Assembly: GCA_002269645.1 (NCBI GenBank)
Contig: NIVC01003678.1
Span: 1-64,000 of the forward strand
DNA: 64,000 nt
Direction: 5' to 3'
Origin: Macrostomum lignano
Taxonomy: Eukaryota
The notes under the pieces were generated by a model. That model had not been told where the DNA came from. It did not search any database and saw only the letters and a program-made list of their open reading frames with translations. Positions 26,521 to 64,000 of the stretch are shown piece after piece. Position numbers and translations under genes: made by a program. The first letter of the stretch is position 1. Each line of letters opens with the position of its first letter.

Positions 26521-29500
26521 TTATACTTCCGCGTCAGCATCCTTGGGCCAGGTGATGTCGAGATTGTCAGACTCCGGATGCAGAGTGTAGAATCCAACCA
26601 TGTCGGCGGCGGCAGCGGCGGCGGTCAAGGCGGATTTGCGCGAACTGGACGCCACGGCTCCCGTCGCGGCGGGGGGGCTGGCGGAGGCGGCAGCCCCTGC
26701 AGCGGCACCGGCGGATGTAGCAGCGGTTCCGCCGCGACCGTGATGCCGGCAGTAGGTGTGGTCGGCGTAGGGCAGAGCGTAGGGCACGGGAGTGTCGGAC
26801 CAGAGGCTGGCGGAGGTGGCTGCGGCCGGCTGCCTGGCAGCCCGGCCCGGCCCGGACGGCCGGACGGCGGCGGCTTTGCGACGTCGGCGACGACCTGCGG
26901 CGTTGAGCGCTAAGTCGAGCGTTACGCACTGGCGCATGCGGCAGCGCTGCCGCTCCAGCAGGCGATTCCTGCCGCCGTATTTCGGCATGTCCAAACAGAA
27001 GTCGCAGCGGCCGCAGTCGCTGACCCGAAGGCAGGGCGCGCACCGGCCGCAGCGTCTGGCAGCTGGGCCGTCGCCAGCGCCGCCAACGCCCAACCCATCG
27101 TCAATGTCGTCATCGTCCAAATCCGAGTCGTCGGAGTCGTCGTCGTCGTCGGAGATGCCGCGCCGATGATCGTCGTCGGTCTCGGTGGACGAAGCGGCCG
27201 AGGAGCGGCTGCGGCGCTCGGCGGGCAGCAGAAGGTCCTCCGCCTGCGGCAGCCCGAAATCGTCTTCGTCCTCATCCTCATTGGCATTGGGCACCAGCGC
27301 TGGCATCGACGGCTGTTGCTGCTTCCGTGAGTTTTTTGTTGCCTGCTGTTGTTGTTGCTGCTGCTTGCCGGCACTGGCGGCCCGGCGGCCGCGCTTCTTG
27401 GGCTCACCAGCCGGAGCGGCGGCGTTAGAAGCGGCAGCAACTGCAGCGGCCTGTTTAGAAGTTGAATCGGTGGTCGCCGCCGATTTTCTCTTTCTTCCTC
27501 TGGCTGGCGGAGTCGGCGCCGATGCCGCTGCTGCCGCCTCGGATGCCCGCTTGCGCTTGGCTGCTGGCTGGCCGCTGTGATTAGCGCCGGATTTTGAAGC
27601 CTTCGCAGAACTGGCCGCAGCGGTTTTCTTGTCCTCGGAGCCGGCCTGCTGGGACTGGCCGCGCTTCCGGGAGGCTGAGCCAGTCTGAGCGACGGCAACC
27701 GGCGCCCGGCCTTTCTTATACTGAATAGCCAAGCCCGGATGCTTTTTCAAGCACTTTGAACAATAGAACTTGTTAATAGCGGCCGCGTCCTTCGAGCTGA
27801 CCCCGATGCAGTCGCCGTGGTACCACTCCTCACATTTGTCGCAGGCGATCATAAATCTGTCAATGTCGGTAGATCGGCACACGCACCAGGCCTGCAGGTC
27901 GCTAGAGGCTGAGGAGGCCGACTTCTTTTTTGAAGCGGCTGTACCGCCGCCGCCGCTCTGTTGCCGCTGCTTGCTGGCAGCGCCGCGTTTCTAAGAAAAG
28001 GGAGAAGCGAAGGACATTATGAAGCTGTAGAGTTGAGGAGATATCTAATGAGACAATTGAGCCACTATTTGCATAGTTTACCTAAAAACTTTATTAGAAT
28101 TGTCCATTAAAAACAATCAAGAAGTGTTTTGATTGTTACAGAACATAACTATTAGACCAAAGAAAAATTATTACTTAAGGAAAAAAGGACAATCAATTAA
28201 GGATTTGTTTATCTTTTAACTAAGTTGCATAGCTGGTGTTATTTAACAGGTTGTGCACATGTAATGACCTAGTAATAATTCACAACCATAGGTTATTGTG
28301 ATGCAATGCCAGAACCAGTATTATCCAATAAAAAGCAGGCCTATAAGAACATTAATAATACAACTGTACTTTTTACTGTACAGAGACTAATAAGATTTTA
28401 AAGTTACTTTTTGTGTTTTTATTGCATTTGATAACTGTTATGTGCCTAAGTAAAAAGACACTCCTACTTTTGAATATTGGTAAATATAATTTATTGATAC
28501 AAAAGGGTCTAATACAACTAAAATAGCCAAAACCTTTACAACAAAACAATAATAGCAAGTCCTAATTCTAGAACAGTGTTCCCACTCAGCAACCTTCATT
28601 TTTTTGTGCCAAGCCATTCATTTTTGCGCCATGGATATTTTTTGCACCACTATCACTCTTTACCTCTAAGGCTATAATGTAGTATGATGCCCATTGAGAC
28701 ATTAAAAACACTCAAATACCTAATATTCATGCATCTCAATCATAAATCATCCAATTTTTGATGAGATAAAACACTACAACTTGGCAAAAAATGGGTCAAA
28801 AAATGGCAACAACAGCATGGGCATCAGACTATTAATTTCTCTAAATCAAAATTGCAATTATAAAACATATTAGTTTCTAAAAAAGCATCCAAAAATGCGG
28901 AAAGGGTTACAATTTAGGCACAAATTTTCCACATTTTTAGATTTGCATTGAACTTTATTAATTATGCATTCACGCCATATTGCCTCATTTTCAGGCATGG
29001 TACAAATTTGTGCCAAAGTGGGAACACTGCTCTAGAATACATAAGAAAGGCTATAAAAATAGATTTGTAATTATAATTAAGCATATTAAAGGTTGGTACT
29101 TGACTAGGGGTAACAAAAACTAATCTTATTAAAGACTAATAATTTAGTAGGATTTTTAAAGTTATTTTTAAGTATTTTTTCTATTTTATTTGATTTTAGT
29201 GGCTGTGGAGGCAATAAAGCTAACCTAAAAAGTAAAAAAAGATTTTGCAAAAGTTTTAAGCATATATATTATCAAAGACTGGTTAAAAATTAAAAAATTA
29301 TATCGACTTTACATTCCAGTATCAGGAATATATGCTTATATACCACTGTACACTAAAATAAAATTTCCCTTCCTACGACCTAGCTTCTATATGCAAATGG
29401 ACTTAAGCAAATTTAGCAAAAATCTTGTCAAATTAGGAAATAGAATAATTCAATCTAATCTATAGCTTATTAATTCTTTTGGTACAATGGCACTTATATG

Positions 29501-31780: not shown

Positions 31781-33287
31781 AACAACAACAACAACAGAGT
31801 ACGCTGTCAGTTCGCAAAAGCAGCGTCAGATGGCGCGCTTCGAAGCTTGGGCGCGAACAAAGGCCGCACCGCCGGCAGAGTCCGGGGCGCCGGCGTCAGC
31901 CAGCAGACAGTCGACGTAGCGCCGAGTCCTCGCCTGTCCCCGCCGGTAGGGTGCCTTCAACGTAAGTAGGAGCACCTCCTGCACCGGCTCCGGACAGTAG
32001 GCCTCAGCGCGGATGACGTGGCCTGCCAGCTGGAGTCGCCGACGGCGCAGCAGATCGCTAGGACGGGCCAGGCCGGCGCGATGATAGAGCGCCGTGTTGG
32101 TGACTCGCTCGTTGCCGATCTTGAAGGCGGCGCTCAGCAGGCCAGCGTGCGCCGCGTCGACTTGAGCCTCGAGCGAGTCTGTCAGCGTCCAGGTCTCGGC
32201 GTTGTATAACAGGACGGTCTCGATCACCGCCTGGAACAGCGCCGCCCTGGAACAGCGGCGGTCCGGTAGGGCCTCGGACTGCAGGACTGACCTTATAGAA
32301 CGAAAGGCAGCCCAGGCAAGTCCTCGGCGACGCCGCAGATCCTCGCGGACGTCGGGAACCAGACCGCCAAGGTAGACGAACTGCTGGCATCTTGGAAGCT
32401 CACTCGCCTGTCCGTTAGCGCCTCGGCAGAAGATTGCAGCCTCGGTGTCGTCCGGCACGCATAGCACGACGGTTTTCTGCGTGTTGACCACCAGGCCGAC
32501 GCTCGCCGCAACGGCAACCAGCCTATCCAGCTGTCGTTGGGCGCCCTTGACGGTCGAGGACAGCAGGGCAAGGTCATCGGCGTAGCCAAGCACGCTGAGC
32601 CGTCTCTCCGGTTGGCGTCGACCCACGCGTCGCCGCAGCAGGAAGCCGTCGTCGTTGGAAGGCAGAGCAGTCCGTAGCACCCAGTCAAGCACCAGAATAA
32701 ATAGGAACGGCGCTAGCGTATCTCCCCAGAGCACCCCGGAGGATGTCTCGAAGAAATCCGATAGGCCGTCCGGTGTTGAGACAGCAGCCGTCGTGCCGTG
32801 GTACAGCGCCATGACAGCAGAAATCAGCAGCTCTGGCACGTTGTACGCACGGAGCACCTCTGGGAGCGCGTCCCTCACGACCGAGTCAAAGGCCTTCCTG
32901 AAATCGACGAAGATCAGGATTAGGGTCAACTGGCGGATGTGCGCCTCCTCGATGACTCGCCGAAGAGCCAGGATCTGCGTCACTGTGCCGCGATGGGGCC
33001 GGAATCCGTTCTGCTCAGGCCGCAGGTAGGGGTCCAGCACAGGCTGTAACCGCGATAGCAGCATGTGGTTGAACAGCTTCGCGGCGCAGGACTGTAGGCA
33101 GATGCCTCGATGCTCCTCGAGCTTGGTGGTGCCCGGCTTCTTTGGAATGGCGACGATGTGCGCCGTGGTCCATTCGTTTGGCGCCACCTCACCGGAAAGC
33201 ACGCGGTTCATCACTCTGGCGACCTCAGTGGCCACGCAGTGGATCCGCAGCGCCTCGGTGGGTAGTGACGAGCGCCTCGGTGGGTAG
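31781..33287 (-). mobile_element. 5'-truncated RTE-like non-LTR retrotransposon with open RT ORF
   Basis: ORF 31826-~33265 has RT motifs (IPKKPG..HRGICL, EQNGFRPHRG, FVDFRKAFDSV, GVL(W)GDTLAPFLF, YADD, FVYLG). No endonuclease. (TGT/TTG)n 3' tail at 31781-31795. The ORF-track start at 33304 lies outside the element. Confidence 0.92.
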
Positions 33288-33772
33288 CAATATATGTTGC
33301 ACATCTACACATTTTACATGTACCAAGAAGGACCAATCTGTAGTAACTGCAGGATCGACGTACGTAAAACTCAAAGATCGTGTAAATTTTTACGAGGTTG
33401 ATAATCCGGGAAAAAACACTGTGGAGACGACAGGAAAAATCAATTTTTTCATCCCAAAATCTATGATTGAATTTGATCTGAGGCAGTGAATATTAATTAC
33501 CATTTTAGCGTGCACATGTTGATATAGTTGTGCAGTGTGAGAAGTTTCATTTTTATATTTTTTCATCGCCCAAGCCAAGTTGAGGATACGATCACAAGTG
33601 AAATTTTTGTTTTGTTCCTCAAGAAGCATGCAGCAAAACTTAAAAATGAAACTTTCAGTCTACACAACAACAACAACATGAAACAACAACAACAACAATA
33701 ACAACAACAACAACAAAGTCTATTTGTCAGCCAAGTCAAGCGTCTCGGGATGATGTGACCTACTACTAGTTG

Positions 33773-50319: not shown

Positions 50320-51362
50320 CCGAGACAGTGGCAGTACCGGTGCCAGATCAGACGGCCAGCACCTGTGCAAGGGCAATGCTCGAGGAGTGGGTCTGTCACT
50401 ACGGAGCCCCAGGGACAATCCACTCGGATCAGGGAGCCAATTTCGAGTCGCAATTGCTCGGCCAGCTGTGCGAAAGTCTGAATATCCGAAAGACGCGTAC
50501 GACCGCCTATCACCCCTCTGGAAACGGCCAAGTGGAAAGCTTCAATAAGACGCTGACTGCAGTGATCCGGGCGCACCTGGTGAAGGAGCCGGATCAGAGG
50601 CGGTGGGACGAATTCGTTGCCCCGGCGCTCATGGCGTATCGCTCCAGTGTGCACCGCGGCACCGGCCTTTCACCCTTCTTCCTTCTGCATGGTCGCGAGA
50701 TGTCTCTGCCAGTTGACTTGGGAGTGGCGCGCCCACTGGACATCGAACCGTACTGCGAGGAAGTCCAGAACCTGCGGGAGACGCTCGTGGAAGCCCATCG
50801 GGTGGTGCGTGAGAGAATAACGTCATATCAACGAGTGCAGAAAGACTGGTACGACCGGAAGGTGAAGGGTCGAGAATTCGTGGCTGGCGACGAGGTGTTC
50901 GTCTACAACCCCGTGTTGAAGGCCGGTGCCAAAGCGAAGCTCCACTCACCCTGGACCGGACCTGCCGTAGTTCTCGAGAAGCTGTCGGAGACGCGCTATA
51001 GGATTCGACAGGAAGGTCGACGGAAGCCGATCAAAGTGGTGCACTTTAACAACCTCCTGCCTCGATACCGGAAGTACCCAGTCGACGGCACCGGTGGCCC
51101 TCGGCGTCCTGCACCAAGGAGGTACCACCCAGGTCCTGCTCAAGAGACGGAATCCGTCAGGGAGGACTCGCAGGAATCAGACGATGAGGATGAGGAGCGA
51201 TGGTGGCGACATTCCGGGCGGGTTCGAGAGGAGGGAGAACCAATGGATGTGCAGCAGCCAGGAGTGCAGCCGCAGCCGGAAGCGCCAGTTGAAGTCATCG
51301 AAGGTCGACCCCAGAGGGATCGAAGGGTTCCGCAGCGTTATGGAACGCCCGTGTATTATTAA
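50320..51362 (+). pseudogene. 5'-truncated Gypsy integrase (core + GPY/F-like C-terminus)
   Basis: IHSDQGANFES (second D), KTRTTAYHPSGNGQVESFN (E), ALMAYRSSVH..TGLSPF, WTGPAVV..VVHFNNL. The HHCC zinc finger and first catalytic D are missing; the ORF-track N-terminus from 50232 is flanking DNA. Confidence 0.9.
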
Positions 51363-51390
51363 GAGCGGACGTGAGTGCGTGCGCAGTGTC

Positions 51391-51755
51391 GCGTCATCTC
51401 CTGCGTCATAAATAATTGGTTCGAAGCATCATTCGCGTCATCTCCTGCGTCATAAATAAGTGGTTCGAAGCATCATTCGCGTCATCTCCTGCGTCATAAA
51501 TAATTGGTTCGAAGCATCATCCGCGTCATCACCTGCGTCGTCAACATTTGGTTCGAAGCATCATCCGCGTCATCACCTGTGTCATAAATAATTGGTTCGA
51601 AGCATCATCCGCGTCATCTCCTGCGTCATAAATAAGTGGTTCGAAGCATCATTCGCGTCATCTCCTGCGTCATAAATAATTGGTTCGAAGCATCATCCGC
51701 GTCATCACCTGCGTCGTCAACATTTGGTTCGAAGCATCGTCTGCGTCATCACCCG
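51391..51755. repeat. 44-bp tandem repeat inside the retroelement (GCGTCATCTCCTGCGTCATAAATAATTGGTTCGAAGCATCATTC)n
   Basis: Period 44, about 8 copies, directly after the integrase stop. Confidence 0.9.
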
Positions 51756-51923: not shown

Positions 51924-52841
51924 GTGAGTCGTGGTTGTTGCAGGCACTGCTTTCCGGGCATAGACCTCTACGCCGAGTTTGGTGTCAGCCCCTTCGCGAC
52001 GGAGGAGGAGCTGCGACGTGCGTACCGCCGTGAGAGCCTGCGACGGCACCCCGACAAGTGTGGACCCGGTGGAACGGAGAATTTCCAGAGGCTGCAGCAT
52101 GCGAGTGCGGTCCTGCTGTGTCCGTTTCGACGAGCGCTGTACGACCGGTTCGGGCAGGATGCCGTTAGCAACCCGCTCGAGTGCGCCCGGTATTTTGTCC
52201 CGCCGGATGGGATGTGCGTCCCGGAGGAGTTTGTCGTAACGATTGAAGACGAAACAGAAGAGTCAGACGAGGACAGGGAGTCGGAAGGAAGCGAGCGTGG
52301 TGGTTGCGGCGGCGAGGAGACTGCTCAGAGCTGCTGTGAAATCACGCAGTCAGAGGAAGAAGAGCTCTTGAATGAATCCGACGGCGAAACTTCGATGTCA
52401 GAAGACGAACCGGAGCTCGTCATCGACCAACGGGAGTCGCCAGCGTGGCTGATGAGGAGCGAGCCGAGTACCGAGGTGGAATACACCTGGAGCGGGGAGG
52501 CAACGCAGCGAAGAGCTCGAATCCGGTCGGAGCTTCGGCACGCTTTGTTGTCGGGGAGTCCAGCTGCGATGTTCCGGCTTTTGACTGAAATGGTGGGACT
52601 GTGCGGCAGCGAGCGGCTGGATCATCGACGCGAAATCGCCGAGCTTTTGGCTCAGACTGTCAAGTTCATTCTCCGTGACATCAGCGCCAAGTGTCGGGGT
52701 CATGCTCGGCGTGTCTGGCGGCGGCCTGCCTTCAAGCGAAGCACTCGGTTCGTCATGAGTGTTGCGATCCCTCAGTTTGAACTAATCGTCGGAGGACGCG
52801 TGTTGGGGTTGTTGCGCCGGGCGGCGGAGGTGGCGGTCTAG
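51924..52841 (+). CDS. Retrotransposon accessory ORF: N-terminal J-domain (DnaJ/Hsp40, HPD intact), acidic linker, basic helical C-terminus
   Basis: 51963-52154 encodes DLYAEFGVSPFATEEELRRAYRRESLRRHPDK...ENFQRLQHASAVLLCPFRRALYDRFG, matching all four J-domain helices. HPD at 52047-52055. The frame is open from 51873 but has no ATG before the J-domain (the track start is GTG). Confidence 0.85.
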   Translation: MSRGCCRHCFPGIDLYAEFGVSPFATEEELRRAYRRESLRRHPDKCGPGGTENFQRLQHASAVLLCPFRRALYDRFGQDAVSNPLECARYFVPPDGMCVPEEFVVTIEDETEESDEDRESEGSERGGCGGEETAQSCCEITQSEEEELLNESDGETSMSEDEPELVIDQRESPAWLMRSEPSTEVEYTWSGEATQRRARIRSELRHALLSGSPAAMFRLLTEMVGLCGSERLDHRREIAELLAQTVKFILRDISAKCRGHARRVWRRPAFKRSTRFVMSVAIPQFELIVGGRVLGLLRRAAEVAV

Positions 52842-52959: not shown

Positions 52960-53640
52960 AAGGGCGGGGAACACTCTCGGCCATGCCCGGCGTTCTCGGT
53001 CGCTGCCCGGTGTTTTCGGCCGCTGCCAGTCGTTCTCGGCCGCTGCCCGGCATTCTCGGCCGCTGCCCGGCATTCTCGGTCGCTGTCCGGCACTCTCGGC
53101 CATGCCCGGCGTTCTCGGTCGCTGCCCGGTGTTTTCGGCCGCTGCCAGTCGTTCTCGGCCGCTGCCCGGCATTCTCGGCCGCTGCCCGGCATTCTCGGTC
53201 GCTGTCCGGCATTCTCGGCCATGCCCGGCGTTTTCGGCCACAGCCCGGCATTCTCGGCCGCTGCCCGGCATTCTCGGCCGCTGCCCGGCATTCTCGGCCG
53301 CTGTCCGGCACTCTCGGCCATGCCCGGCGTTCTCGGTCGCTGCCCGGCATTCTCGGCCGCTGCCCGGCATTCTCGGCCGCTGTCCGGCACTCTCGGCCAT
53401 GCCCGGCGTTCTCGGCCATGCCCGGCGTTCTCGGTCGCTGCCCGGCATTCTCGGCCGCTGTCCGGCATTCTCGGCCATGCCAGGCGTTCTCGGCCGCTGC
53501 CCGGCATTCTCGGTCGCTGTCCGGCATTCTCGGCCATGCCCGGCGTTTTCGGCCACAGTCCGGCATTCTCGGCCGTGCCCGGTGTTCTCGGCCTGTCCGA
53601 CATCCTCGGCCCCTGTCCTGCGCTCTCGGCCGCTGCCTGA
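52960..53640. repeat. CpG-rich ~20-bp modular repeat (CTCGGCCGCTGCCCGGCATT)n in the element 3' UTR
   Basis: Direct reading; includes a ~122-bp higher-order duplication. ORFs in all six frames reflect lack of stop codons. Confidence 0.9.
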
Positions 53641-53725: not shown

Positions 53726-53736
53726 AGGGGGGAGGG
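53726..53736 (+). other. Polypurine tract
   Basis: AGGGGGGAGGG preceded by a T-run and immediately followed by TGTTGT. Confidence 0.9.
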
Positions 53737-54142
53737 TGTTGTGACCTGTGTCACAGTGCTCCCCTGGTGCAAGTGCACTTTGATAGTTGTTGACTTTGGT
53801 AGTTGATTATTGTTACCCCCCCCCCCGGCTCAAGCCAGTCTGGAGCTATGAGCCCTTTGGCTGAGCCTCTGCTCTCTTTCTCTCTCTCTCTCGCCTTGGC
53901 TGTTTAGCCCTTTGGCTAGCCGTGCTGATTGGCTGGGCCTCTGCTCTCTCTCCCTCTCCCTGGCCGTGCGCGCTTCCACCCTCCCCTCGCCGCAGCCAAT
54001 CAGCTGTCAATCAGCTCCATTGTTTAAGCCCTTTCTCCCCCCCCTTGTTTGCGCCCCTGCCCCTTTTTACTCGTTATTTAAGGCGACGCTCAGACCCCGC
54101 CCCTTTTCTCACCGTGCCTGCGCCCCATTTGCGCCCACCGCG

Positions 54143-54151
54143 ATAAATAAA
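54143..54151 (+). promoter_or_regulatory. Overlapping TATA-like box / AATAAA poly(A) signal of the LTR
   Basis: ATAAATAAA lies ~28 nt upstream of TCAGCCG (Inr-like, 54168-54174) where the SL starts. It is the only AATAAA I see in the LTR. Confidence 0.6.
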
Positions 54152-54171
54152 CGAACGTGACCAGCGATCAG

Positions 54172-54215
54172 CCGTAAAGACGGTCTCTTACTGCGAAGAC
54201 TCAATTTATTGCATG
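54172..54215 (+). other. Genomically encoded copy of the flatworm spliced-leader exon inside the LTR
   Basis: CCGTAAAGACGGTCTCTTACTGCGAAGACTCAATTTATTGCATG matches the Macrostomum lignano SL as I recall it. It has a 5' CCGT-AAAG-ACGG hairpin and the flatworm-type TTGCATG 3' end. It is not followed by GT, so this is not an SL RNA gene. Confidence 0.85.
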
Positions 54216-54336
54216 CCTGCGGCCTTCCCGTGTATGAGTGCTATAATCGACCCGGCCCGGTAAGCTGTCGAGACAATTGCCTGTGTTCCTCGGGGTCGCT
54301 CTCCTGATCTCTCTCTCTCTCACTCTCTCCTCAGTC

Positions 54337-54540
54337 TGACTCACCAGGCTGTCGAGTGGCCGACCGCCCGCAGCCCTCTCTCTCTTCCTTGACTCACCAG
54401 GCTGTCGAGTGGCCGCCCGCCCACAGCCCTCTCTCTTTTCCTTGATTCACCAGGCTGTCGAGTGGCCGACCGCCCGCAGCCCTCTCTCTCTTCCTTGACT
54501 CACCAGGCTGTCGAGTGGCCGCCTGCCCACAGCCGCCCCT
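54337..54540. repeat. 53-bp tandem repeat x4 in the LTR downstream (U5-like) region
   Basis: TGACTCACCAGGCTGTCGAGTGGCC at 54337, 54390, 54443 (TGATTCA variant) and 54496. Confidence 0.9.
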
Positions 54541-55273
54541 CCCCTCTCTCTCGACTTCTCAACCTTGACCTCCCCCCGAAGTGTCCGTACGCCTCGGGGT
54601 CGCCGATCGAGCTCGTAAGCCCTGGGCAGTCTAGTACCCGAACCCCGACACCGCTACCCGTCGCCCAACCCGGCCGTGCCAGCGAGGAAGGGGGATACAA
54701 CATATGCTCAAGCTCGAATGGCCTCCTTCACTCGCCTTCCGCTGCAGACGCTGACTCCCATTTCCATCTCCCCTATAATTGCATCACTTGCTTGAACAGC
54801 TTTCAACTTAAGGCTCCACTCGCAGAGTCCAATTCGACTCAGCCAGCAGCCAGAGGCGCATTGGGCAGCGCCTCTCGGTTTAAGCCGGCATTCCCGATCC
54901 ATCTTAGCGGCTGCCGGCAGACCGGCCGATCGGCAAGGGCGCTGCTGGATTAGCCATGAGCTGATGCGCCTAGCTCTCTTCCCGGCTCTCTGCATCAATC
55001 TTCTCCTATACTTTATTTTCTTTTTTATAATGAAATTAGAATTAAAATGAACCCCTTTCATGCATTGCTGTGACGCTGTGACAATAGAAGATGAGAAGAT
55101 ATTATATTGAGCATCCTTCCTCGATTTCGTGTAGATCGACTTAAGACCCTCAGATAGAACAGGTGGATTTCACTAGATCTCACGAATGGATAAATAGGAA
55201 AAATCGGTATTTCATGACTCGTTCGTCCTCGGGTTTTAGCATTGGTTCTGTTGTTTTGGCTTGAAGCAAATAC

Positions 55274-56070
55274 TCACCCGATGAGTGCAGCAGAGTCTCC
55301 TCTACCCAAGCTCCCGGCACGACTATCGAACCCTGGACAGGCACCGGACAGCACGCTCGAGCAGTCGGATTGTCGGCGCCAGTTGGAGACGAGTAGAGGC
55401 GCCGGTAGCGACAGGGGCGACGCCTGCTGAGATGGCTGCGAGCTTTGATGATGATACACTGCAGGCTGCAGCTGCTGTGGTGGCGGCGGTGGCGGCGGTG
55501 GCGGCGTCTCCGGAGACGATCTGCGCTCCATGAACAGCCGATCCTCAGCGACCGACTCCCAGTCCAAGGCGTCGCATTTCAGGCAGAGACTCAGTCTTAA
55601 AGTTGAATTGTCCAGCCGCTGGTTGGGACTGTATGGCGTGAGAATGAAGGCTCGCTGCTCGGGCTGGTTGAGGCAACCGATCCCTGCGAGATGGATGTTC
55701 ACAAAGCCGAGCTTAGAGAATGATCGGCCGCCTTTCTCTTCCTTTCTAACTGAGACGCGAATTGTTCCGGCTGGTAGGCGGCAGCTGAACTGCAACGGCG
55801 GCTCGTAGGGCTCGCCGGAGTCACCGTTGCCATTGGTTACTGCGCTGCAGTCGGTGCCGGACCACGTGACCCGATTGTCGCGAATCTCGCGCCGGCTTGA
55901 GTACCGGCAGAACTGGCCACCGCTCAGTAGGCGAACCTTTGCAAACAGTACCCATTGCTAAGGGTGACACCTTCCATGCCATTTAGAGTTAGCTCGACGT
56001 CACATTTATACTGCTGGCGCTTAGCACTAGTTCGGGATTCATTTGAAGCGTGACGCACGCAACTGAACAT
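55274..56070 (-). CDS. FAM102A: FAM102/EEIG-family NT-C2 domain protein with a 1-nt frameshift at ~55952
   Basis: ATG at 56070. KRQQYKCDVELTL..VTLSNG/VLFAKVRLLSGGQF..SSRREIRDNRVTW..IRVSVRKEEKGGRSFSKLGFVNIHLA..RLDNSTLRLSL parallels FAM102A (NGVLFCKVRLLDGG..RVSVRKELKGGKAYSKLGF..RQDNSILKV). A G|GTGAGT donor near 55276 suggests a further exon. A-vs-B paralogue assignment is not possible. Confidence 0.8.
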
Positions 56071-61997: not shown

Positions 61998-63437
61998 TCA
62001 CTTCTTCAAATGGTGAGCGATGCCCCTCAGGTAGGAACGCAAAGGAAAGTCAGCAGGCAGACCGCCACCTTCGACGTTCCAACGCTGCGTGACGCGAAGA
62101 AGCATCGCGTTGCTCTGCACGTATCTCTTCCGCTCCTTCGGTGCTTCACTAGCGTTGGCTCGCTGCATCAGCAGTGCCTGGTGTTCGACTTCCTTTTTGA
62201 GGTCCTTCATGAGCCGAAAAACATTCGGATTGCTGCAACCCAGAATTGACTGGAACCTCCTATGCCAGGCTTCAACTGCGTTGTTCGTGCGATGAAGTCC
62301 ATTCAAAGTTCGCTCACGAACATTCCAAATTGAAGGTGAGAATCGAGGCTGCCGTCTTCCTCCGCCAGGAAGTCGATGGCCGACCCACTGGGCTTCAAAA
62401 TAGTCTGCTGTTGAAGCCATCTCCGCAGGAAAGTCAGGCAGCATTATTAACTCATCAAATGCTGCTGGAACACTATTAATAGGCACAAAGGCCAAAGCAG
62501 AAAGGCAACGCAGCCAGACGGACATCTCGCCATCTTCTTCAATCTGACGCTTTAATCCCTCAGCAACTGCTCTTCTGTACACGCACTGAACGAGGTGAAA
62601 TAGACAGCCTGTTGACTCGATGCCAAAGACATGCTGAACAGCATTCATGTTAGCTCGCTCAAAATCTGACATCCAGCGAAGTGGCCTCATGTTCGGCGCC
62701 AATTGATGCAGAGCCTCGTAAAATCGACAGTACGTTGCTTCGGTCTTGTTGGGTAGCAATGCGTAGATGAGTGGTCTTATGAAGCCTTGAAGTTCGGCAT
62801 GCACTGTCACCAGTTGAGCGAACAGTGGCGGCGAGGCATCGAATGTGCCGTCCGAGAAGAAATCTGTCGCCAATTGCAGGGCTTGAATGTTATCCTCGCT
62901 ACCGAAGATTAAAATTCGATTGTTGTCCTGTCCGGAGTCATGCAGCAGAAACAGTGCTCCGTTGTTGAATTGAAATTCTTCAGGTATAATGAGCTCGGCT
63001 CGATTGAGCGGCTGTACTGGAAGACCTTGGTGCGTTTGACGAACATCTTGAACTTGCCGCTTTAATGCGCTTTGAGATGGAAGGGCTATGCCTGCACACT
63101 CAGACAGCCCATTTGTGTGTTCCATGACGATATTTGCCGTCGAATTCACGGTGTTCCTGGCATCCGATTTAATCTCCCGAAGAGCCTCAAGAACTTGGAA
63201 TCGAGAGCCGTCAGGTCCGTGATTGTGGTCATTCAGCTGTCGCACTTTAAAGCCATTCCGGATGTGGATTCGAGCAGGACATGATCCCAAGCGCCGTTCT
63301 TCACACTGCCAAAATGACACCTCTTCGTCGACCAGGCTAGTTCTTTCAAGTGTAAAGTAGTAGCCTTCGCAGGCTGCTTTGCGCTTCCCACGAATTGTTG
63401 CACTAAAGCGCACAGCGATGGGAGGAGCTGCTTCCAT
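61998..63437 (-). CDS. Mutator-like (MULE) DDE transposase with N-terminal FLYWCH domain, 479 aa, uninterrupted
   Basis: FLYWCH: GYYF..FWQC..CPARI..HNH. MULE core: SDGTF, MSDFE, CLFH (CxxH), RTNNAVEAWH. No matching TIR pair found inside the window. Confidence 0.92.
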   Translation of the reverse strand: MEAAPPIAVRFSATIRGKRKAACEGYYFTLERTSLVDEEVSFWQCEERRLGSCPARIHIRNGFKVRQLNDHNHGPDGSRFQVLEALREIKSDARNTVNSTANIVMEHTNGLSECAGIALPSQSALKRQVQDVRQTHQGLPVQPLNRAELIIPEEFQFNNGALFLLHDSGQDNNRILIFGSEDNIQALQLATDFFSDGTFDASPPLFAQLVTVHAELQGFIRPLIYALLPNKTEATYCRFYEALHQLAPNMRPLRWMSDFERANMNAVQHVFGIESTGCLFHLVQCVYRRAVAEGLKRQIEEDGEMSVWLRCLSALAFVPINSVPAAFDELIMLPDFPAEMASTADYFEAQWVGHRLPGGGRRQPRFSPSIWNVRERTLNGLHRTNNAVEAWHRRFQSILGCSNPNVFRLMKDLKKEVEHQALLMQRANASEAPKERKRYVQSNAMLLRVTQRWNVEGGGLPADFPLRSYLRGIAHHLKK

Positions 63438-64000
63438 GTGGTCTGCTTGTTATTAACGTTGTCTTGAAATTCACTTTATATATGTAGAGTTGTCGCAGTC
63501 TAACTTGACCAGACTAAAGTTGAATACACTAAGCAGTAAGGAAGGGCAGTGTATTTATATATTATAGGAGATAACAGGGGGTTGAGAGAAAGGAGGGGTG
63601 GGCAAAGAGAGGGGTTGGGTTAGGAGGCGCGATCAAAGGAATGAGGGGCACGCAAGACAAGAAGGAGGCTAAAGGGGTGGGGTGCCTGCAGCCAATCAGA
63701 AAGAGAAGAGAGAATGAGAGACCCAGACCCAGACCCAGAGAGAATGAAATCCAGACAGATTTTATGGACATTTTATCGAAGACTGGGAATTGAGATATAG
63801 GGGTCCAGGATAGAATTAGCGAGAAAGAATCACATCAGACTTTGTTTACACTGCTTTCTGGATCTTTAGCGAGGAGTTAATAAGCAGGTCTTTAAATTTC
63901 ATTAAATTTGTTATATAGATAAGCCAGCTGCCCGTCGCCACATGCACAAGGCGATGTTTTTAGAAAATGCTCTGCATACTCATACTCTATGTAAGGGCCA

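Follow-up and report, generated by a model that had tools for sequence, protein, structure and literature searches.

A J-domain accessory gene after pol in a clade of Ty3/gypsy retrotransposons of the flatworm Macrostomum lignano

DNA viruses are known to make use of J-domains, and the stimulation of Hsp70 by a J-domain with an HPD motif is established J-protein chemistry. The polyomavirus T antigen combines an HPD J-domain with targeting motifs, using LxCxE, and turns Hsp70 on host complexes. Accessory genes of this sort may reveal the host process that limits a mobile element. It was reported that LTR retrotransposons of bdelloid rotifers harbor non-envelope ORF3s encoding a GDSL esterase and a DEDDy exonuclease, which are captured genes located after pol, gained and lost in a family-specific manner, described as usually being translated from spliced messages, and including a nuclease-fold domain; DnaJ has 0 occurrences in the available text of that study (PMC5408684). 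The Ty3/gypsy element Cer1 of C. elegans produces, from a spliced mRNA, the accessory protein CERV, which is needed for the export of genomic RNA and for which no J-domain is described in the part of the paper available (PMC10309623). On the host side, the Arabidopsis J-protein SILENZIO works with the methyl-CpG readers MBD5/MBD6 and with Hsp70 on the chromatin of transposable elements (PMC8616336).

The window analysed here, a stretch of 64,000 nucleotides, comes from M. lignano, a flatworm in which transgenesis is available (PMC12801592), and contains a gypsy element with a J-domain reading frame, hereafter ORF3, downstream of its integrase. As in the bdelloid elements, this is a captured non-env gene after pol with family-specific gains and losses, but, unlike them, the flatworm ORF3 keeps one J-domain and one helical core throughout its clade and gains further modules. 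CERV, likened to ORF3 by description, is also accessory to a Ty3/gypsy element, and ORF3 is predicted to come from a spliced mRNA as CERV does; however, the RNA-export role of CERV has been demonstrated, whereas ORF3 is known here from sequence alone. The T antigen shares with ORF3 an HPD J-domain encoded by a virus or mobile element and joined to a targeting motif, which in ORF3 resembles a SUMO-interacting motif (SIM). It belongs, however, to a DNA virus and carries a helicase, which ORF3 does not, and no LxCxE motif was found in any element protein examined, so that the likeness stops at "J-domain plus targeting motif"; no viral structural match was found for the C-terminal domain of ORF3. 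Like SILENZIO, the proposed ORF3 product would be a J-protein tethered to repressive marks, with an Hsp70 partner, at transposon sites. SILENZIO is host-encoded and repressive, and its reader is a separate protein, whereas ORF3 is element-encoded and, in one family (F), has a reader-like domain fused to it. Non-env ORF3s were thus already known in LTR elements, and what appears to be new is a J-domain as a standing gene of an LTR retrotransposon clade, since no report of a J-domain ORF in LTR retrotransposons was found in the open-access literature searched. The available main text of a study on M. lignano LTR elements has no mention of Hsp40, J domain, chaperone or ORF, and in its available supplements DnaJ appears solely as an annotation of transcript clusters of the host (PMC12801592).

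The window copy and the families that carry ORF3

The element copy in the window is a 5′-truncated relic that retains only its 3′ LTR. Its match to an intact copy (97.5% at the DNA level) sets in at position 50326, inside the integrase, whose remnant forms the end of pol (50326–51362, plus strand like all features of this element; rve and Integrase_p58_C matches; stop at 51362), and no 5′ LTR, gag or reverse transcriptase (RT) of its family, designated A, was found elsewhere in the 64,000-nt window. The spacer that follows contains a 44-bp tandem repeat of 8.2 copies (51390–51750, TRF; 4.4–5.4 copies in two sister elements), located inside the predicted intron. Downstream are an open frame of 305 codons (51924–52841), a 20-bp tandem repeat of ~34 copies (52975–53637, TRF), the polypurine tract (PPT; 53726–53736) and a 966-bp 3′ LTR with TG...CA ends (53737–54702), which is 96.7–99.0% identical to the 5′ LTRs of intact family-A copies. 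The sequence-only reading of this locus had described such a frame between the integrase stop and the PPT, flanked by element-internal repeats, and was right in both respects.

It had also taken the frame to be an integral part of the element, and the rest of the genome agrees. A genome protein search with the ORF (150 matches listed; 231 candidates, 129 scored) gave, among the matches listed, 14 full-length ones of at least 98% identity, the window included, and then groups at 60–33%; the C-terminal half of the integrase was present in 28 of 30 loci around the top matches. Twenty loci of ~15 kb each were taken for inspection, of which 16 had the ORF immediately after pol; of the other four, three were host DnaJ genes and one (C17) was a broken relic. 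Families A (that of the window), B, C, D, E and F were distinguished, with subfamilies A2, B2, C2, D2 and F2, and their ORF3 proteins are 30–36% identical to that of family A. A further family, G, whose ORF3 combines the C-terminal domain with a J-domain that is degenerate, was found by RT search at five of 19 further RT-bearing loci, and the genome contains additional G copies. Three of the same 19 loci (L112, L113, L118) represent family H, in which neither a J-domain nor a C-terminal-domain match was found; here, ~1.2 kb of unrelated sequence replaces ORF3 between integrase and PPT, and at L113 this stretch contains an antisense frame of 205 codons. ORF3 is located after the integrase and before the 3′ LTR in seven families, A–G.

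These carriers are Ty3/gypsy LTR retrotransposons. Their intact LTR pairs have TG...CA termini and are 98–99.9% alike in A, B, C and F, a PBS directly follows the 5′ LTR in intact elements (presumably tRNA-Lys-like in A–C and tRNA-His-like in D and E), 4-bp target-site duplications were observed at three sites (C620, C236, C1138), and a gag with a CCHC knuckle precedes a PR-RT-RH-IN order, with a pol frame of 1332 aa in C1686. In an RT-RH tree of 26 rows, families A–H formed one clade (UFBoot 98), with H as sister to G (UFBoot 100), and the RTs of the carrier families are 55–64% identical to that of A. The id38-like locus L124 fell in the sister group of this J clade, and it is the only marker of the Gmr1/Osvaldo cluster in a tree that holds no GyDB reference rows. 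Mlig-id38 has been placed in that cluster of the M. lignano Ty3/Mdg4 families (PMC12801592); both its published LTR (supplement 5 of that study) and the published spliced leader (SL; PMC8629364) match this genome. As far as the available text goes, the J-bearing families are probably among those counted in PMC12801592. In the sister families (id38-like, L123, L125), long pol frames were present and no ORF3 was found. The simplest reading of this distribution would be a single old capture followed by loss in H, and the nested position of H, without ORF3, suggests that the gene is dispensable or supplied in trans. The J-protein gene appears old, selected and modular, and young families with and without it coexist in one genome. 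One D-family element (G000:C441 328001–342000; L051–L052) lies amid AT-rich long ORFs, which on impression only look like a large DNA element.

Composition, selection and origin of the ORF3 protein

The J-domain of the window copy (51963–52145) was located by PF00226 (residues 14–74, E 1.3e-12; score 48.1 bits, with the cut-off at 27.8) and by structural alignment of its model, which matched solved J-domains with a best Z of 10.1 and an rmsd of 1.3 over 69 residues. It is complete and presents an intact HPD at 52047–52055, as had been read from the letters. Matches to PF00226 are above the cut-off in families A–F and below it in G. In alignment A3, the HPD was kept in eight of nine N-terminal regions with a full J-domain and in one partial region; the one region without it belongs to a broken copy. 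It is also present in all five relatives from outside this genome that span the domain. The ORF3 of family G, a frame of 558 aa, contains neither HPD nor SIM-like motif; since G keeps the gene (whole-ORF dN/dS 0.32) without HPD, Hsp70 stimulation would not be required in every family. The domain is of the four-helix type with HPD between helices II and III, a class C Hsp40 feature. Classes A and B are marked by a G/F region and a DnaJ_C domain, and no Pfam match to DnaJ_C or to a zinc finger was obtained in the six family proteins.

In the AlphaFold model of ORF3, the J-domain with a short helical extension is followed by a disordered acidic linker (52251–52478; pLDDT <50 at model residues 98–173; 31 D/E versus 4 K/R) and by a five-helix C-terminal domain (52494–52838; 23 K/R versus 10 D/E), so that both residue counts and model bear out the acidic linker and basic helical C-terminus reported earlier. 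The five-helix domain is conserved and common to the families, and its Arg/Gly-rich loop contains a near-invariant Arg and a common Trp (alignment A2). Modelled alone by AlphaFold, it reached a pLDDT of 91 and a pTM of 0.82. Foldseek gave no match at E <0.001 for this domain in PDB and BFVD; the best match in the VIA comparison (Z 8.7, rmsd 3.0 over 88 residues) lies within the helical-bundle background; a PDB sequence search with the C-terminal profile retrieved only designed helical proteins and weak matches; and a search of the ESM Atlas, at low recognition, produced no usable match. This domain is hence a well-folding module for which no known match was found.

The C-terminal profile was also searched against 1.84 billion representative proteins. 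Ten matches were obtained, comprising two M. lignano gene models, six Logan/JGI proteins (184–351 aa) and two repeat proteins, the latter regarded as false, and among these 1.84 billion representatives no cellular protein beyond the ORF3 family matched the domain. A seventh outside relative was recovered from a protein cluster. The seven (P0004–6, 8–10, 13) are known here as proteins alone, and no genomic locus was found for P0009; five of them carry an HPD J-domain and one also a chromodomain. A single-protein search of 5.8 billion proteins returned only generic DnaJ, and a profile search of the same proteins returned one M. lignano model. No exact sequence of the six family proteins was found in the protein collection. 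When metagenome and viral contigs were scanned with the profile, the loci retained (the best 80 of at least 240 and the best 80 of at least 206) matched through the J-domain alone, and none of the matches extended into the C-terminal domain.

Other modules vary among the families. A hydrophobic core with an acidic flank is the pattern of SUMO-interacting motifs, and a SIM-like stretch of this kind, recognised post hoc, is found in the window at 52224–52265 (FVVTI, then acidic residues). The motif occurs in 11 of 17 family proteins against 3.1 expected from shuffles, with a pattern set after seeing the data and 17 sequences that are related to each other; a stricter first pattern matched five of the 17 and missed family A. 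The six proteins without it include all three chromodomain proteins (F, F2 and P0010), and E and the outside relative P0009 have neither module. A predicted complex between host SUMO and a 32-residue linker peptide of the window scored 0.36 versus 0.05 for the best control; at least 83% of contacts were shared between runs, and the partner pLDDT was at least 54. The mark for this score was reached by 51 of 78 solved pairs and 2 of 108 mismatched pairs, peptides being outside the calibration, and a score of at most 0.60 at the passing mark was seen in five of the 78 solved pairs and in all four mismatches that passed. As SIM–SUMO complexes have already been solved, the score may come from model memory, and the prediction lends weak support to the possibility that the linker peptide binds host SUMO. 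The host presents single-exon SUMO genes in several copies, some of them as inverted pairs on one contig (L162–L168).

A chromodomain (PF00385) was identified in the ORF3 linker of family F (E 9e-9) and of P0010 (E 7e-13), and F2 aligns to F across this region; in both F (L073:261-1238) and P0010, it sits in the linker and not on the integrase. A TatD-like domain was added in D (E 8e-8, above cut-off) and in G (E 9e-5, below cut-off), the extensions lying at L115:4799-6472 and L116:1824-2366 (minus strand). Compared with a solved TatD, G carries Arg in place of the His in IIIHN and Ala in place of the Asp in ETDAP, positions that we take to be metal-binding residues. Judged by these substitutions, the domain of G is a likeness of fold only, with an incomplete metal-binding His/Glu/Asp set. 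In some D copies, the J and helical parts have been deleted and the TatD-like piece alone was kept.

Nei-Gojobori comparisons between subfamilies indicated that ORF3 is under purifying selection. The dN/dS of the J region was 0.10–0.11 in six of seven comparisons, dS being saturated in the seventh (F/F2), that of the C-terminal region was 0.09–0.26 in five of five, and that of the whole ORF was 0.23–0.32 in all three comparisons of close variants (B, E, G). The 14 copies of family A differ by eight non-synonymous and six synonymous variants, which alone carry little signal. Against the closest of 16 host J-domains, those of the elements show 38–47% identity. In a J-domain tree, from which a motif filter had dropped six of 22 host loci, the element domains stood apart from the host domains at only UFBoot 79, with no donor pinpointed; one further genome search for J-domains scored the best 150 of 336 candidates. 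The gene is thus multi-copy and clade-wide rather than confined to one copy, at most 47% identical to any of the 16 host J-domains compared rather than nearly identical to a host DnaJ, and conserved by selection rather than decaying neutrally with dN/dS near 1, and for these three reasons the element-encoded accessory J-protein of the sequence-only reading holds.

Two other J-domain observations concern this genome. A 1449-aa single-frame protein with an N-terminal HPD J-domain is present in at least five copies (L109–L110, G000:C575); it is unrelated to ORF3 outside the J-domain and may belong to another mobile element. Row 695 of supplement 2 of PMC12801592, in the part available, is a mildly heat-induced cluster annotated "DnaJ domain, score 65.2", a value close to the Pfam score of family C (65.3).

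Predicted splicing and candidate functions

The earlier description of the ORF as intronless is probably wrong. The first codon of the frame, at 51924, is a GTG inside a predicted intron, and the stretch would correspond to coding exon 2 (51944–52841) of a spliced message, an open frame whose phase fits that of an exon in the LTR. The predicted 3′ splice acceptor, ending in TTGCAG (51928–51943), is identical in 23 of 23 family-A loci holding exon 2, and A2 has CATTGCAG in the corresponding place. Predicted coding exon 1 and its donor occupy 54234–54265 (ATG at 54234 to 54259, 26 nt, phase 2; donor GTAAGC, 54260–54265). In the window, this exon is visible in the 3′ LTR, and it would operate from the 5′ LTR, absent here. 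The LTR of A contains a predicted ATG exon of 26 nt and that of A2 one of 23 nt. Each of the two is in frame and ends in phase 2, and their peptides are alike, although the synonymous sites of A and A2 are near saturation. A GTRAG donor-like site was found in seven of seven LTRs tested, 155–240 nt after the first TATA-like box, against a chance of 0.15–0.34 per LTR in a search interval chosen after the fact; such a site is also present in the LTRs of G and of H. YAG directly precedes the ATG in B, C and F, as it does for 27 of the 640 ATGs that served as background from six element bodies. In G, an acceptor-like site lies 6 nt ahead of the ATG, and E is less clear; D1 has no ATG of its own, and its predicted donor-acceptor junction would create a start codon. 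A short LTR exon is hence predicted to supply the start codon in A, A2 and D. Such an exon would leave the internal Met free to vary: codon 51960 is Ile in the window and Met in 19 of 20 distinct acceptor-holding copies of family A (23 loci, three of them duplicates), A2 has Leu where A has an internal Met, and the window frame has no ATG ahead of the J-domain. The ORF3 protein would accordingly be translated from a subgenomic RNA that has been spliced.

Contigs of four sequencing runs were aligned on an intact copy (L111:100-7480). They cover ORF3 and cross the acceptor unspliced in four of four runs and the donor unspliced in one listed piece, and no donor-to-acceptor joint was found among the pieces listed. 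Rare forms are lost from contigs, so that this is no evidence that the joint does not exist, and the element requires unspliced RNA as its genome. Joints at position 581 of the intact copy correspond to spliced-leader ends of other RNAs. No spliced retrocopy was found among the 23 family-A loci. At least half of the words of the ORF are contained in 18 of 24 listed sequencing runs, none of which is recorded as RNA, their RNA status being guessed.

The explanation that we tentatively favor is that ORF3 is a selected accessory gene whose product works inside the nucleus as an adaptor: it would deliver Hsp70 to silencing complexes marked by SUMO or heterochromatin on the element, and loosen them. 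The LTR donor would be spliced to the acceptor that precedes the J-domain, the HPD J-domain would stimulate host Hsp70, the SIM-like motif or, in family F, the linker chromodomain would do the targeting, the basic C-terminal domain would bind nucleic acid or chromatin, and the silencing of the element would be relieved. The sequence-only reading had suggested Gag/Pol assembly or counteraction of silencing, and the SIM-like motif, the chromodomain and the TatD-like fold fit a task in the nucleus connected with silencing better than they fit assembly. As the SILENZIO precedent is a repressor, anatomy does not show in which direction ORF3 would act. With a transgenic host and families with and without ORF3 side by side, active counter-silencing by animal LTR elements, through Hsp70 and SUMO, becomes testable.

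The main rival, itself rather unlikely, is that ORF3 acts instead in the manner of Rev or CERV, binding unspliced element RNA through the Arg-rich C-terminal loop while Hsp70 remodels the RNP for export or stability. Rev has an arginine-rich motif that the ORF3 loop may resemble, the C-terminal domain being basic, with its near-invariant Arg and common Trp in that loop; the tandem repeats flanking ORF3 in A and A2 could be binding sites, and the degenerate TatD fold could bind nucleic acid. The expression logic would also be that of CERV of Cer1 as available in PMC10309623, but B, D and F have no spacer repeats, and chromodomain and SIM-like motifs suit chromatin better than RNA export. More unlikely is a private replication co-chaperone that would put Hsp70 to work on Gag, Pol or the integration complex, in folding, particle assembly or uncoating, and in which the chromodomain of F would aid target choice. 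The conserved HPD agrees with such a role, the hepadnaviral RT and several viral capsids depend on Hsp40/Hsp70, and an element-specific adaptor is plausible given RTs only 55–64% identical to that of A. However, long pol frames without ORF3 are found in id38-like elements, L123, L125 and the nested family H, G keeps ORF3 without HPD, and the TatD-like and SIM-like additions would be left unexplained.

A global effect, in which ORF3 would divert Hsp70 from HSF1 or from piRNA-loading chaperones and thereby raise stress transcription or weaken the small-RNA defence, is improbable. In this host, LTR elements exploit the heat-shock response, and a heat-induced family, Mlig-id38 (PMC12801592, as available), corresponds to L124, which belongs to the group that is sister to the J clade. 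Against this, no canonical HSE was found in any A–F LTR examined, the matches being two just upstream of a host DNAJB-like gene and one in id38; id38 itself has no ORF3 match, and a global decoy needs no conserved C-terminal domain or chromodomain. We consider it very improbable that a host DnaJ mRNA was recently and passively transduced and does nothing for the element. Some host DnaJ genes have long single-exon frames, which makes capture mechanically easy, but the best identities of 38–47% to the 16 host J-domains, a C-terminal domain with no cellular match beyond the family among the 1.84 billion representatives, dN/dS far below 1, and carrier RTs that differ by ~40% all argue otherwise. 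An env-like entry protein is the least credible of all. ORF3 does occupy the env position, as had been noted, and its predicted spliced expression is that of env, but the product is not env-like: the top 19-residue hydropathy is 1.08–1.49 in six families, below usual membrane segments, Pfam matches are limited to the J, chromo and TatD families, and the model is soluble and all-helical.

A spliced-leader copy in the family-A LTR

The 3′ LTR of the window harbors a copy of the host spliced-leader exon (54171–54215), identical in 45 of 45 nt to the SL RNA gene L154 and containing the 35-nt SL as given in the available text of PMC8629364. A TATA-like box starts at 54144, 27 nt ahead of this copy, and transcription would be predicted to start where the copy begins. 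The exact 32-nt SL pattern had 86 genomic matches, and the 30 loci inspected were 18 family-A LTRs, seven SL RNA genes and five other sites; the SL core was found in none of the loci of other families examined. In sister family-A LTRs, the match ends two bases earlier, so that they do not hold the AUG of the SL, and the window form is unique in the genome. The window copy alone keeps the terminal AUG, in frame with predicted exon 1 (54171–54215 of the window compared with L131–L153).

In the four runs mentioned above, summed depths of 28,000–132,000 were reached in one LTR bin, with adapter ends. This peak is explained by the copy of the host SL exon and suggests that the four runs are RNA. 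No report of an SL inside an LTR was found among the literature titles listed. If true, a spliced leader built into an LTR would be a separate case of RNA mimicry. A broader version of the reading favored here, in which a chromatin-targeted Hsp70 recruiter (HPD J-domain, new helical domain, SUMO motif or swapped chromodomain) would strip silencing and the SL copy would disguise the family-A RNA, is possible but doubtful.

Isolated genomic SL copies followed by unrelated sequence were observed at L133, L138, L139, L140 and L152, like retrocopies of trans-spliced mRNAs. Two of these isolated copies start at the same base as the LTR copy, which suggests that the true SL is ~45 nt, longer than the published 35. 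Elsewhere in the window, frames labelled by eye on the minus strand include a PHD-finger protein exon (26524–27990), a non-LTR RT frame (31829–33304), a C2-like exon (55277–55957) and a FLYWCH/Mutator-like transposase (62001–63449), and tandem repeat makes up ~36% of the window.
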